DNA of 64,000 nt from Kiritimatiellia bacterium (GCA_016783675.1 JADHWE010000001.1:64955-128954); one strand, 5' to 3'. Counted from the first letter of the stretch, positions 47,383 to 54,048 are shown. Notes: generated from the sequence alone by a model not told the origin. Numbers and translations: made by a program.

Positions 47383-48768
47383 TCAGCTGATCGTCCCGAT
47401 CATGTAGAAGTCATCTTCGGGACGATCATCCATTTTGCCGTCGATGATCTTCTCGCAGTCATCAAGTGTTTCGCCGACCTTGACGAAAGCGCCCTTCTTG
47501 CCGACATAGGACTCCGCCACGAACATCGGCTGGGTCATGAAGTACTGCAGTTTGCGGGCGCGCTCATACAGCGTGCGGTCGTTCTTTGATAGTTCGTCCA
47601 GCCCGATCACCGCCACGATACGGCGCAACTCGTCGTATTTCGTCAGAATACGCAGCAGTTCCTGGCTGATGTCGAAATGGCGCTGACCGACGATTGCCGA
47701 GTCGAGGTTCGAACACGACGAGGCCAGCGGGTCAATGGCCGGGTAGAGGCCAAGCTGTGTCCGTTCACGGGAGAGCACCATGATGGCGTCCAGGTAACTG
47801 AAGATCGTCACCACAGCCGGGTCGGTCAGGTCGTCGGCAGGCACATACACGGCCTCGAATGCCGAAATAGTGCCCTTGATTCGCTCATGCACATCACCGA
47901 CCTCCGAACTCAGCGTCGGCTGATACCCGGTTTCGGAAGGCGTGCGTCCCAACAGGGTCGAGATCTCGGCGCCGGCCTGGACAAAGCGATACACGTTGTC
48001 GATGAAGAGCAGCACCTCCCGGCCCTGCTCCTGCAGGTATTCGGCCAGCGTGATACCCGACATGATGATGTTGAAACGCGCACCGGGCGGTTCATCCATC
48101 TGCCCGAAGGCCATCATGATCTTATCCAGGATACCCACCTCTTCGAACTCGAAGTAGAGCTCATTGCCCTCACGGATACGCTCGCCAACTCCCGTGAATA
48201 CACAGGCACCCTCGTGCTCTTCCACGATGTTGTGGATCAGCTCCATGATCAACACCGTTTTGCCGCAACCGGCACCACCGATAACGCCGGTCTTGCTGCC
48301 GCGAACCACCGGGAAAAGAAGGTCGACCACCTTGATGCCTGTTTCCACGATCTCGGCCTTGCCGCCGCCCAGGTCGCCCATATCCATCGCCACGCGGCCG
48401 GAGTCTTTATGGATCGGCGCACGCTGCTTGGTCAGAATGGGACCTTTCCCGTCGATCGGATCACCCATGACGTTGATGATGCGGCCAAAGAGCTCGTCGC
48501 CAACGGGAATGGTGAGTGTTTCGCCCTGCGCTATGGCCAGTGCGTTCCGCTGCAGGTTCAGCGTGGATGCCAACGAGACGCAACGGGCGATATTGCCCTC
48601 CAGGTGCTCGGCCACCAGCAGGGTCACCTCGCGCTTATCGAATGTCTTGGTGTTGATCGTTTCATGCAAGTCAGGCATGTCCTCGATCGCCACGAACTGG
48701 ACATCGACTACCGGCCCCTGTACGGCGATGACCTTGCCTTCACGCTTTCCTCTGTTTTCCATAGCCAT
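47383..48768 (-). CDS. atpD: F1-ATPase beta-type subunit (divergent)
   Basis: It has the beta-type P-loop GGAGCGKT and the catalytic Glu retained in [10 protein letters not shown]. It also has QMDEPPGAR and [11 protein letters not shown]. The DELSEED loop is altered to DELSKND. Confidence 0.85.
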
Positions 48769-48795
48769 GATATCTCTCCCCGTTCTAACCCGACG

Positions 48796-51122: not shown

Positions 51123-52622
51123 CTACTTCTCCGCCTCGGGGGCGTTCGCCTGTTGATCCATATGCTCGGTCAGCGCAGTCGACAACATCTGCTCCAATTC
51201 CGGCGTCAGTTCGGTCGCATCCCCGACCAAGTCGTACAACGCACCATGGCGCTCGCGCACAAACAGGGGGAACTCCCTGCAGAACTTATGGCGATGAGGG
51301 TCGGTCATCTTGTTGAGCACACCCTCGCGCAACCCGAAGAGCAACAGGATCTGGTCGTTGACCGGCACCGGTTGGTACTGCATCTGCACAAAGATCGACG
51401 CGATCGACTGGCCGCGATCGACGATCTTCTGCGCCTCATCCGACAGGCCGGACTGCAGGCGGCTGAGGGCCAGCACTTCGTTGTACTGCGCGAAGTCGGC
51501 CCGCAGCCCCAACGTCAGCTCCCGCATCAATGGGCTCTGTACGCGCCCGCCGATAATCGACAGCGAGGTCGTGATATCGATGGCCGGGCGGACACCCTCG
51601 GCGAAGATAGCCGAACTCAAAAAGATCTGTCCGTCGCACATCGAGGCCAGGTTCGAAGGAATGAAGCCGGTCAGGTCGCCCTGCAGCGTCTCAGCAATAC
51701 CGAGGAACGTCATCGATGCCCCGCCATGCGCCTCATTAAACCGGCCGGCACGTTCCATCAACTGTGTCTGCACATAGAAAATATCACCGGGATAGGCCTC
51801 GCGTCCCGGCGGACGCTCCAGCAGAAGCGAGAGCTGCCGATAGGCCCAGGCATGCTTGGTCAGATCGTCGAACACCACCAGCACGTCCTTGCCCTTGAGC
51901 GCAAAATACTCGCCCATTGAGGCCGCTGCAAACGGCACGAGGTACTGCTCACCGACCGGCGCGTTATCCGTGGCCACCATCACGCACGTGTAATCGAGTG
52001 CGCCGCCATCCTTGAGCACCGACATGATCTTGCTCAGACCTGAAAGCGATTTTCCCACACAGCAGAAGATGCATACGATGTCACGCCCGAGCTGATTGAG
52101 GATGGCATCCACCGCAATAACCGTCTTGCCGGTCATGCGGTCACCCAGGATCAACTGTCGCTGCCCCTTGGCCAGCGGAATCGCAATGTCGATCATCTTC
52201 GTGCCGACGGGAATGAACTCTTCGACAGGCGCCCGCCAGACAATCGGGGCCGAGTCGCGGAAAACCGCATACATATCGTCCGGCACCACGGACTCCCCCT
52301 GGTCACAGGGCTCGCCCAACGCCGTCACCATGCGCCCGATGAAGCGGTCGCCCACAGGAATCTTGAACGGCTCACTGGCACCCGTGACTTCCTTACCCAT
52401 GCGCAGGCGCGTCTGATCGCCCAGGACGAGGACCAGCACGTCCTCCTCATCAAACCCCATGATGATACCGTTCACCCCGTTGCCGAGGTCCACGATCTGA
52501 CCGTTGAGACAGGTAGGCAGACCCGTGATGCGGACAATGATCTCCTTGATGTCCTTGATCACGCCCTTCTCGTGGACCTTGATCTTAAAGAGCGGTAGCG
52601 CGGTACCGAGCGATTTGCTCAT
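51123..52622 (-). CDS. atpA: F1-ATPase alpha-type subunit, paralogue 2 (arginine-finger position is Ile)
   Basis: It has the alpha-type P-loop GDRMTGKT and DDLTKHAWAYRQLSLLLERPPGREAYPGDIFY. The canonical SVSRVG is SLSIIG (I356, codon 51555-51557). It overlaps the preceding alpha gene by 38 nt. Confidence 0.85.
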   Translation of the reverse strand: MSKSLGTALPLFKIKVHEKGVIKDIKEIIVRITGLPTCLNGQIVDLGNGVNGIIMGFDEEDVLVLVLGDQTRLRMGKEVTGASEPFKIPVGDRFIGRMVTALGEPCDQGESVVPDDMYAVFRDSAPIVWRAPVEEFIPVGTKMIDIAIPLAKGQRQLILGDRMTGKTVIAVDAILNQLGRDIVCIFCCVGKSLSGLSKIMSVLKDGGALDYTCVMVATDNAPVGEQYLVPFAAASMGEYFALKGKDVLVVFDDLTKHAWAYRQLSLLLERPPGREAYPGDIFYVQTQLMERAGRFNEAHGGASMTFLGIAETLQGDLTGFIPSNLASMCDGQIFLSSAIFAEGVRPAIDITTSLSIIGGRVQSPLMRELTLGLRADFAQYNEVLALSRLQSGLSDEAQKIVDRGQSIASIFVQMQYQPVPVNDQILLLFGLREGVLNKMTDPHRHKFCREFPLFVRERHGALYDLVGDATELTPELEQMLSTALTEHMDQQANAPEAEK

Positions 52623-54048
52623 CGAACCCCTCCTTGATGCTGTCGGACATTTCCTGGTTCTGCCTCAGTTCAACCAGTAGCTCCGGGCAGTTGAGGTGAA
52701 CCAGGTCGACCAAGCTCTTCAGCTTGGCCTGAACTTCCTCCGGCGTGGTGTCCTCCAGGAACCCCTGCTCGAGCGCATAGAGCACGACGACCTCGTCCTC
52801 CATCGGAATCGGGTTGTTCTGATCCTGCTTGAGGACCTCCTCCAACACCTTGCCCTGCAGCAAACGTTTCTCCACATCGGGAGACATGCCGGCCTTGATA
52901 CGCGTCAGTTTCTCCAGCTCCTTGTAGCGCACAAACTCGAGTTGGAGCATGCCGCACAGTTTCTTCACGGCGCGCCACTGCACCTTGCTGCCGATACGGG
53001 AAACCGACAACCCCATGTCGATCGCGGGTTTAAAACCCTCGCCAAACAGGTTGGTGCTGAAGTAGATCTGCCCATCGGTCATCGAAACAATGTTGGAAGG
53101 AATATACCCCGCCAGATCGCCCTGCAGGGTCTCGACGATAGGCAGGTGCGTCATCGACCCCCCGCCACGATCCGGCTTCAACTTGCCGGCGCGCTCCACA
53201 AGCTGTGAGTGGATATAGAAGATGTCACCGGGATAGGCATCGCGTCCGGGCGCGCGCTCCAGCAGGAGCGAGATCTGCCGATAGGCCCAGGCATGCTTTG
53301 TGAAATCGTCAAACACCACCAGCACATGCTCAGCCTTCTCGTACATGAAATACTCGCCGAGGCTGGTTGCCACGTAGGGCGACAGGTATTGCTGTCCCAT
53401 GGGATCGGAAGCCGTTGCCGCCACACTGATGGTGTAGTCCCACGCATGTGCCTGGTTAAACACTTCATGCACACGGCCGAGCGCTGCTTCGGATTTCCCG
53501 ATGCAGCAATAGATACAGATCACGCCTTTGCCGCGCTGGTTCAGGATCGCATCCACCCCGACGGTTGTCTTGCCGGTCATGCGGTCGCCGATGATCAGCA
53601 TGCGCTGCCCCCGCCCCACCGGCTTCATCATATCGACAATCTTGGTACCGGTCTCCATGACATCGCCGAGCGGAATACGCTCCAGTACAGAAGGCGCCTT
53701 CATGAAGATGGGATACATGGCCGATTCACGTATCGGCCCCTCGCCATCAATCGGCTGTGCCAGGGCATTCACGCGCCGGCCGAGGAACTCTTCGCCCACC
53801 GGAACCTTGAAATCGTCAATTGGGGTGGAAACCACGTCGCCCGGCTTGATGGGATGACCCGCCTTGACAACCAGGACCAGAACGTAATCGGCATCAAAAC
53901 CAACGATAACGCCCTCGGAGTCGCTTCCGATCCGGACCAACTGCCCATTCATACAGTTGGTCAACCCGGTTGCATGGACCACGTCCTGCCGCACTTCGGC
54001 GACGGTGCCTTTCTCCGTCATCTTGATCAGGTCGAGTTTGAGAGCCAT
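52585..54048 (-). CDS. atpA: F1-ATPase alpha-type subunit, paralogue 1
   Basis: It has the alpha-type P-loop GDRMTGKT and DDFTKHAWAYRQISLLLERAPGRDAYPGDIFY. SVSRIG retains the finger Arg (R351). The conserved GIRPA motif reads GFKPA (K340, codon 53029-53031). Confidence 0.85.
   Translation of the reverse strand: MALKLDLIKMTEKGTVAEVRQDVVHATGLTNCMNGQLVRIGSDSEGVIVGFDADYVLVLVVKAGHPIKPGDVVSTPIDDFKVPVGEEFLGRRVNALAQPIDGEGPIRESAMYPIFMKAPSVLERIPLGDVMETGTKIVDMMKPVGRGQRMLIIGDRMTGKTTVGVDAILNQRGKGVICIYCCIGKSEAALGRVHEVFNQAHAWDYTISVAATASDPMGQQYLSPYVATSLGEYFMYEKAEHVLVVFDDFTKHAWAYRQISLLLERAPGRDAYPGDIFYIHSQLVERAGKLKPDRGGGSMTHLPIVETLQGDLAGYIPSNIVSMTDGQIYFSTNLFGEGFKPAIDMGLSVSRIGSKVQWRAVKKLCGMLQLEFVRYKELEKLTRIKAGMSPDVEKRLLQGKVLEEVLKQDQNNPIPMEDEVVVLYALEQGFLEDTTPEEVQAKLKSLVDLVHLNCPELLVELRQNQEMSDSIKEGFDEQIARYRATAL

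Follow-up and report, generated by a model that had tools for sequence, protein, structure and literature searches.

We report here an F-type ATPase gene cluster at positions 47,383 to 54,048 of a 64,000-nucleotide stretch (hereafter the window) of a Kiritimatiellae metagenome-assembled genome (MAG; GCA_016783675.1, JADHWE010000001.1:64955-128954). The genes of the cluster account for a whole F1-like head and rotor as well as for a c subunit and a b/delta stalk, whereas subunit a is missing. There are two alpha genes, and the arginine finger is specifically lost in the second of them (alpha-2), while alpha-1 and beta keep all catalytic motifs. We consider it likely that the cluster is the Kiritimatiellia/Lentisphaeria form of a non-respiratory, subunit-a-less F-type ATPase belonging to a type II secretion system (T2SS; type IV filament) operon, and, judged from its sequence and surroundings, it is probably not the ATP synthase of the cell. 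The ATPase described in Omnitrophota by Seymour et al. 2023 (PMC10066038) is the single-alpha form that was also found in our analysis. New here are the two-alpha form, the finger loss in alpha-2, the loss of the c-ring carboxylate in some relatives, the P436 family of proteins encoded next to the ATPase, and the sister relation to the N-ATPases. An earlier account of this stretch, made by a model from the DNA letters only (the sequence-only reading), had recognised the seven ATPase genes and the missing subunit a; it had missed the T2SS linkage, P436, the finger loss in alpha-2 and the prior publication of the single-alpha form.

Gene content and the absence of subunit a

Seven consecutive open reading frames (ORFs) on the minus strand make up the cluster (Table 1), and their coordinates, strand and subunit assignments as first proposed were borne out by ORF calling and by Pfam and NCBIfam searches. 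Beta and alpha-1 exceed the NCBIfam equivalog cutoffs for atpD and atpA, respectively. Using the same two databases, epsilon was found to lack the C-terminal inhibitory helices. The b/delta fusion lacks the delta N-terminal domain, its OSCP/delta contribution being the last third of the profile, and its transmembrane (TM) helix shows no residue-level conservation among related loci. The intergenic gaps inside the cluster are 63 and 127 nt, and there is therefore no space for a hidden gene within it. The cluster occupies the central part of a longer run of genes in the same direction, with P436, whose stop codon abuts the alpha-1 start, upstream and T2SS genes downstream.

That no subunit a lies in or beside the cluster, as the sequence-only reading had claimed, was confirmed with a profile hidden Markov model built from 37 AtpB sequences of canonical atp loci. 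It was run over stop-to-stop ORFs of at least 35 aa, with this genome covered by the 64-kb window. The profile matches 43 of 62 control atp loci, whereas neither the window nor any of 29 related loci gave a match, with E values up to 10 allowed; Pfam ATP-synt_A likewise had no match on any flanking ORF of the window. The state without subunit a is shared by 30/30 sources (the window and the 29 related loci), which come from four phylum- or class-level groups. The controls were canonical atp loci from a pattern-based contig scan (including the near-universal pattern REAYPGDI), which returned mostly canonical atpA plus three further double-alpha loci.

Linkage to type II secretion genes

In the window, 16 nt separate the beta stop codon from the start of gspE, which is followed by gspF, gspG and the genes of GspJ-like, GspK-like, PilM/N (GspL-like) and GspM-like proteins; neither PilT nor a secretin was found in the 64-kb window. 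This linkage is not particular to one genome, as GspE follows beta in all 18 of the 18 loci that extend far enough, and the beta and gspE ORF segments abut or overlap in L014, L020 and L021. In two other loci, an epsilon gene is placed between gspE and gspF (L011:15553-15807 and L018:15589-15834; ATP-synt_DE_N 43 and 49 bits, above the cutoff), and the genes of the ATPase and T2SS systems are therefore intermixed. Such interleaving, seen at the level of gene order, would be hard to explain by neutral synteny.

Conservation of the neighbourhood across related genomes, a check that the sequence-only reading had proposed, was found. The double-alpha order, P436-alpha-1-alpha-2-epsilon-c-b/delta-gamma-beta-GspE-GspF-(Peptidase_MA_2)-GspG-pseudopilins-GspK-PilMN, was seen in nine distinct loci, all from MAGs of Lentisphaerae, Victivallales and Kiritimatiellia, and the neighbourhoods compared carry alpha-2 homologues that are just 60-65% identical. 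A single-alpha order, P436-like-epsilon-c-b/delta-alpha-gamma-beta-GspE-GspF-GspG-GspK-PilMN, is present in 16 loci, mostly of Omnitrophota and otherwise of Planctomycetota and further MAGs, so that the ATPase-T2SS layout recurs in Lentisphaerae, Kiritimatiellia, Planctomycetota and Omnitrophota. When related loci were entered independently via the P436 profile, two distant members again showed epsilon-c-b/delta-alpha(-alpha)-gamma-beta(-GspE-F-G). The Peptidase_MA_2 gene between gspF and gspG was seen in L001, L003 and L088 and is absent from the window.

Two alpha subunits and the lost arginine finger

As the sequence-only reading had stated, both alphas carry the P-loop GDRMTGKT and their coding sequences overlap by 38 nt. 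The ATG of alpha-2 has its own Shine-Dalgarno sequence, AAGGAGG, six bases upstream and within the alpha-1 coding sequence. At the arginine-finger position, alpha-2 has Ile356 (SLSIIG), which is invariant across 24 aligned family members and present in the alpha-2 of all seven loci compared, while S-V-S-R-[IV]-G is kept in canonical alphas, in alpha-1 and in all single alphas. We take the Arg of this motif to be bovine alphaArg373 and E. coli alphaArg376. Mutation of the arginine finger cuts F1 catalysis about 1000-fold. A position scan gave only three positions that are fixed in alpha-2 and conserved differently in every other alpha: Ile replaces Arg at 356, Cys replaces Thr at 329 within the TDGQ motif, and Thr replaces Ser at 286. 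By our own residue counting in bovine alpha numbering, positions 356 and 329 are in the alpha segment lining the beta catalytic site. In beta, both GGAGxGKT and GERxRE are retained, and no other subunit is as conserved across loci (71-82% identity, compared with 63-71% for alpha-1 and 55-64% for alpha-2).

An assembly duplication, which had been named beforehand as fatal to the case for a second alpha, is excluded. The two alphas share 44% identity, 13 contigs (ENA, Logan and NCBI) represent independent assemblies of the locus, and the pair recurs with an identical overlap in eight other distinct loci. The substitutions that the sequence-only reading had regarded as shared marks of a divergent lineage fared differently. 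The replacement of G-Q-K by G-K-[SPT] is clade-specific, but TKHAWAYRQ is not lineage-specific, as it is present in canonical alphas, those showing it having come from a sample selected with the DDLTKHAW pattern.

A third layout was found in L091 (15707-18635), with the order giant P436-like protein-epsilon-c-b/delta-alphaA-alphaB-gamma-beta-GspE, in which the two tandem alphas stand after b/delta, in the canonical position, and alphaA keeps the Arg and alphaB has Ile at the arginine finger. From these sequences, alpha-2 and alphaB could either represent an old arginine-less paralogue that was repeatedly lost, or the same change could have arisen twice. A secretin gene and two FGE-sulfatase genes are present upstream in L091.

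The c subunit and phylogenetic position

Across the clade, conservation of the c subunit is good and extends to its GRNPSAAPK loop. The Glu of helix 2, otherwise essential, has been replaced in 4 of 19 relatives, by Gln (L014 and L016), Ile (L008) and Gly (L015), and ion binding is therefore dispensable at least in these four lineages.

Alpha and beta trees were built by neighbour-joining (NJ), a distance-based method, with 100 bootstraps. Alpha-1, alpha-2 and the single alphas of Omnitrophota and Planctomycetota form one clade at 100% bootstrap, within which alpha-1 forms a monophyletic group of its own, as does alpha-2 (both 100%); the T2SS-linked clade is recovered again with beta, also at 100%. 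The two alphas had been taken for duplicates of each other, and the NJ tree does not support this: alpha-1 nests among the single-alpha homologues, beside the Lentisphaerae single alpha L019, and alpha-2 stands on a long branch. In both trees, the T2SS-linked clade is joined by a 100% bipartition with loci of the N-ATPase type (order beta...a-b-alpha), as a sister group and not from within, since both groups are monophyletic at 100% (NJ). This placement agrees with the b/delta protein, which among NCBIfam models is matched best by TIGR03321, the one for N-ATPase subunit b (full length, below the cutoff).

The P436 family and the giant proteins

P436, a predicted periplasmic protein anchored in the membrane, has no Pfam or NCBIfam match, and its 152 close homologues are all annotated 'hypothetical'. 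Using a P436 profile, 945 cluster representatives were retrieved at E<=1e-3 among 1.84 billion. In an AlphaFold 2 model (pLDDT 83), the protein is predicted to start with a signal peptide, to contain a unit of a 7-strand beta-sandwich and a 3-helix bundle twice over, and to carry a TM helix at its C-terminus; compared with the PDB by Foldseek, this model gave generic beta-sandwich matches only (best E 0.07) and no functional lead. The invariant residues of the TM helix (W409, I412, L416, L419, S423, F426 and W430) have i+3/i+4 spacing and therefore form a single conserved helix face, and an invariant Arg-Trp is placed at the cytoplasmic end of the helix. P436 is upstream of the ATPase genes in 21 of the 23 loci with enough sequence. 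Its relatives have one, two or three repeats, and in some of them the P436 module forms the C-terminal end of a protein of 1,100 to >2,800 aa.

Two proposals on the TM helices were considered and set aside. The Arg of P436 was rejected as the counterpart of the subunit-a Arg, being at the cytoplasmic helix end and not conserved in Omnitrophota. The TM helix of b/delta found no support as a conserved partner of the P436 helix, as its residues are not conserved.

In eight double-alpha loci (L001-L005 and L087-L089), giant ORFs of 2,000-3,600 aa are directly upstream of P436, annotated Laminin_G_3/Kre9_KNH where Pfam matches are on record; the reading frame of the giant ORF in L087 appears broken. 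The giant proteins of the double-alpha loci share a conserved helical C-terminal region of ~400 aa with an end motif like xEP[ILV]Vx[ET]xL. This region aligns weakly (E 0.0014), in a consistent position, before the P436-like module of a fused Omnitrophota giant ORF, and the alignment suggests that the giant protein and P436 may be one protein in split form. In the window, P436 is preceded by P591 and a GYF_2/DUF7544 protein, which were not counted as members of the system, as they have no counterparts in related loci.

Two P436-like proteins (L020:29-1192 and L090:1130-3208) have a cytoplasmic GGDEF (diguanylate cyclase) domain past the TM helix, and the N-terminal domain of the GspE proteins adjoining them is of MshEN type; in the window GspE, the match to the cyclic di-GMP motif is weak (23 bits against a cutoff of 38). 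These GGDEF and MshEN domains hint at possible control by cyclic di-GMP.

Comparison with known systems

The closest relative is the 'non-respiratory' F-type ATPase of Omnitrophota, whose alpha forms a clade separate from respiratory alphas, which is co-located with type IVa pilus (T4aP) clusters in 57/66 contigs, and in which Seymour et al. saw a symbiosis or motility trait with a relation to Mycoplasma types 2 and 3; Omnitrophota also carry a separate 'respiratory' alpha clade (PMC10066038). That system falls into the same alpha and beta clade as the window (100% bootstrap with loci L009-L018 and L021), and it shows the same adjacency to GspE/PilB-GspF-pilin genes, with giant ORFs in the same genomes; as in Omnitrophota, the window has a T4aP/T2SS cluster within 10 kb of the ATPase genes. 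In contrast, the published account deals with Omnitrophota alone and with one alpha, whereas the window comes from a Kiritimatiellia MAG and has two alphas, one without an arginine finger, with the pair at the operon front. A text search of that paper gave no mention of Kiritimatiellia, Lentisphaeria or Planctomycetota carriers, of a missing subunit a with c and b/delta retained, of c-ring Glu loss, the P436 family or fusions, or of epsilon between gspE and gspF, an N-ATPase affinity or a finger-less duplicated alpha. The sequence-only reading had allowed that the arrangement might turn out to be an already described layout. This holds for the single-alpha form, which is published in Omnitrophota, and not for the two-alpha form, as a literature search gave neither a described two-alpha F-ATPase nor a link between ATPase and T2SS in Kiritimatiellia or Lentisphaerae.

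The Mycoplasma F1-like ATPases have been proposed to send ATP-derived force across the membrane to surface proteins (PMC12994834). Like the window, the F1-like X0 systems (the Type 2 gliding G1-ATPase and the Type 3 system linked to MIB-MIP) have alpha, beta, gamma and epsilon without subunit a, and they are tied genetically to large surface proteins. Their partner protein resembles P436 in topology, as it combines a signal peptide with a large external domain and with one or more TM segments at the C-terminus (PMC12994834). However, the seven-gene Mycoplasma clusters have no c and no b/delta, and encode a 12-TM protein and a small cytoplasmic protein instead (PMC12994834), whereas c and b/delta are present in the window and a 12-TM protein is not; the Mycoplasma systems also have a single alpha, no T2SS and a monoderm host. 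The window proteins remain well below the cutoffs of the Mycoplasma models, both for alpha (glide_MMOB1660, 369-375 bits against 600; MSC_0619_alpha, 270-285 against 520) and for beta (glide_MMOB1670, 421 bits against 850; MSC_0618_beta, 390 against 570).

The N-ATPases (atpDCQRBEFAG) also have a long b that doubles as delta, with no separate delta, but they have subunit a, AtpQ/AtpR, a beta-first order and an ion-pumping c-ring, none of which is found in the window. The mismatch with the N-ATPase gene order, noted from the start, was confirmed, as both order and content differ, and the alt_F1F0 (N-ATPase) models gave 462/491/53/23 bits against cutoffs of 750/752/225/282; scores against TIGR0330x/0332x were well under the cutoffs. 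With canonical F1Fo, the cluster shares homologous alpha, beta, gamma, epsilon, c and b, the closest solved structures being canonical F1 alphas, and also a c subunit with a conserved ion-binding carboxylate. It differs in having neither subunit a nor the N-terminal domain of delta nor the C-terminal domain of epsilon, in its two alphas and in its operon context. Judged by these sequence comparisons, the system falls outside the canonical F1Fo, N-ATPase and Mycoplasma F1-like X0 classes.

Discussion

Several points weigh against reading the cluster as a non-respiratory, subunit-a-less ATPase that works with the T2SS. First, our view of rotation, of stoichiometry and of a physical T2SS link is drawn from gene order and sequence. 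Second, the helix-2 Glu of c is present in the window (FAEAIAV) and invariant in all seven double-alpha sequences, and given this residue some ion-related role may be kept in the double-alpha lineage. Third, the NJ trees were built without Mycoplasma sequences and long-branch effects are possible; the grouping of alpha-2 with the alphaB of L091 had 32% bootstrap (NJ). Fourth, the window does not have the giant Laminin_G_3 gene that precedes P436 in other double-alpha loci.

In the mechanism that we propose, ATP hydrolysis would turn gamma-epsilon and the c-ring against a stator of alpha/beta and b/delta, with no ions moved. The full rotor (gamma, epsilon and c), the b/delta stalk and the active beta argue for an ATP-driven rotary device, and the missing subunit a together with the dispensable c-ring Glu argues against ion movement. 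P436 would pass torque or force in the membrane or the periplasm, either as a stator anchor or as a rotor-attached shaft; it is a candidate for the force partner because of its atpB-like operon position, its invariant TM face and a topology like that of the Mycoplasma partner. Through P436, the work could reach the giant surface proteins and/or the T2SS platform. Alpha-1 and alpha-2, whose translation is presumably coupled, probably share one hexamer, which would be a mixed alpha-1/alpha-2/beta head. In such a head, the catalytic site beside alpha-2 would be nearly dead and the head asymmetric, which could make one step, a 'home' step, slow or offer a stalk without the delta N-terminal domain a single place to dock. 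The full proposal, that of a new class of nanomachine in which a channel-less, ATP-driven F-type rotor has P436 in place of subunit a, actuates or deploys giant proteins together with the T2SS, and uses an asymmetric head with at least one silenced site, is put forward tentatively, as a possibility that may well prove wrong.

Among the alternatives, the one that survives best, which is still unlikely, is an export-energising ATPase by analogy with FliH/FliI/FliJ, which would deliver or unfold giant substrates or prime the T2SS platform with no sustained rotation of the c-ring. F1 relatives serve secretion in the type III secretion system (T3SS), and in the NCBIfam searches the FliI/SctN models were the next-best matches. 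The operon joined with T2SS genes and giant secreted proteins would also suit this role, and a finger-less alpha-2 would impair smooth three-site rotation. However, a rotor set (gamma, epsilon and c) and a b/delta stator are retained and conserved, as a rotary device needs, and T2SS substrates normally cross the inner membrane via Sec or Tat; P436 and the giant proteins have signal-peptide and TM topologies.

A housekeeping F1Fo ATP synthase with a rearranged operon and atpB elsewhere, its proximity to the T2SS being conserved synteny, is quite improbable. Split atp operons are common in bacteria, beta and alpha-1 score as atpD and atpA equivalogs, and the c subunit keeps its Glu in the double-alpha lineage, but a synthase of this kind is difficult to reconcile with a subunit a missing from every source, delta N-terminal and epsilon C-terminal domains that are absent, an alpha-2 without its finger, a c-ring Glu lost in 4/19 relatives, and epsilon genes interleaved with gspE/gspF in two loci. 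A bootstrap value of 100% also sets the clade apart from canonical alpha and beta. The type species of the class, the cultured K. glycovorans, was described with a V-type ATP synthase and a T2SS (Spring et al. 2016, PMC5148204), which indirectly argues that the cluster is not the bioenergetic enzyme, and the separate respiratory clade in Omnitrophota (PMC10066038) points in the same direction. Between the two options left by the sequence-only reading, a derived rotary module with different membrane partners thus fits, and a rearranged ATP synthase with atpB elsewhere does not, given the lack of subunit a in 30/30 sources, the c-ring Glu loss and the T2SS operon.

Least probable of all is an enzyme that translocates ions with an unrelated membrane protein (the P436 TM helix, GspF or another) in place of subunit a and couples an ion gradient to secretion or the reverse, for while the invariant c-ring Glu of the double-alpha clade, the invariant P436 TM face with its Arg-Trp at the cytoplasmic end and the position of P436 at the canonical atpB site of the operon would suit it, two half-channels are beyond a single TM helix, the P436 Arg is at the membrane boundary instead of mid-membrane and is not conserved in Omnitrophota homologues, and the c-ring Glu is dispensable in four lineages.

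Reading the cluster as a non-respiratory ATPase of a T2SS operon has several implications. Rotary ATPases are known from textbooks as three-fold symmetric heads coupled to an ion channel. Here, a widespread natural lineage (945 P436-family cluster representatives, in at least Omnitrophota, Planctomycetota, Lentisphaeria and Kiritimatiellia) has kept the rotor ring and the stator stalk, discarded the channel and been tied into a secretion operon, and one branch of it evolved a second alpha with a predicted dead catalytic interface. Rotation of the complex, if it occurs, would show the conversion of an ATP synthase to a mechanical motor in diderm bacteria, parallel to the Mycoplasma gliding and MIB-MIP motors and to the T3SS ATPase. 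If the asymmetric head is true, it would be a natural experiment on switching off one F1 site and, to the best of our knowledge, the first natural heteromeric-alpha F1. There is also a practical side, as homologues of alpha-2 carry the public names 'F0F1 ATP synthase subunit alpha' (NCBI) and 'F-type H+-transporting ATPase' (JGI), and such annotations may lead metabolic reconstructions of anaerobic Planctomycetes-Verrucomicrobia-Chlamydiae (PVC) bacteria to assign them an F-type ATP synthase in error. We believe that this essentially uncharacterised, recently noticed kind of ATPase will be of high interest for specialists in rotary ATPases and in secretion.

Other genes in the window

The genes of the cluster and of its surroundings are listed in Table 1. 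Three ORFs of 455-574 aa are antisense to gspE, beta and alpha-1/P436 (45702-47273, 47677-49044 and 53209-54933, all on the plus strand); they are the usual by-product of coding sequence of roughly 60% G+C, and not genes.

Table 1. Genes of the ATPase cluster and of the run around it, in window positions.
Feature	Coordinates	Strand	Remarks
GYF_2 + DUF7544 multi-TM protein	57138-58376	-	In place of giant protein
P591, 591 aa, no family	55439-57214	-	In place of giant protein
P436, 436 aa, uncharacterised	54049..55359	-	Public annotation: 423-aa version, start further in
alpha-1	52585..54048	-	ATP-synt_ab 232 bits; TIGR00962 521 bits (over cutoff); arginine finger kept, SVSRIG
alpha-2	51123..52622	-	ATP-synt_ab 224 bits; TIGR00962 456 bits (under cutoff); P-loop intact; SLSIIG
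epsilon, 77 aa	50876..51109	-	N-terminal beta-sandwich alone (Pfam, NCBIfam)
c, 71 aa, divergent hairpin	50654..50869	-	ATP-synt_C weak match, 26 bits; GRNPSAAPK loop; FAEAIAV
b/delta-CTD (C-terminal domain) fusion, 248 aa, peripheral stalk	49844..50590	-	ATP-synt_B residues 12-131 + OSCP profile positions 105-167
gamma, central stalk	48796..49716	-	Pfam, NCBIfam
beta, catalytic	47383..48768	-	TIGR01039 554 bits; catalytic motifs intact
GspE/PilB-type secretion ATPase, MshEN N-terminal domain	45732..47366	-	Starts 16 nt past beta stop codon
GspF inner-membrane platform protein	44510..45715	-	Follows GspE gene
GspG major pseudopilin	44037..44435	-	Exceeds NCBIfam equivalog cutoff
140-aa called gene, no family assignment	about 43473-43895	-	T2SS core run 39866..43895
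GspJ-like, prepilin-type	42844-43476	-	
GspK-like	41870-42883	-	
PilM/PilN fusion, GspL-like	40447-41943	-	
GspM-like	39866-40444	-	

Directly downstream of the GspM-like gene is a gene for a 418-aa MORN-repeat protein (38599-39855, minus strand), followed by 715-aa and 337-aa ORFs without family. The remaining window is ordinary chromosome, with lpxK, thyA, carAB, pyrG, purF, holA, recO, clpB, a sulfatase and an exosortase. Cultured members of Kiritimatiellia are free-living polysaccharide degraders (PMC5148204). The exosortase is a 1,345-aa exosortase (EpsH)-TPR fusion (11324-15361, minus strand), and a 256-aa protein (34449-35219, minus strand) has a weak PEP-CTERM tail (18 bits, below the cutoff); together, these two suggest that an exosortase sorting system may be present in the same genome.

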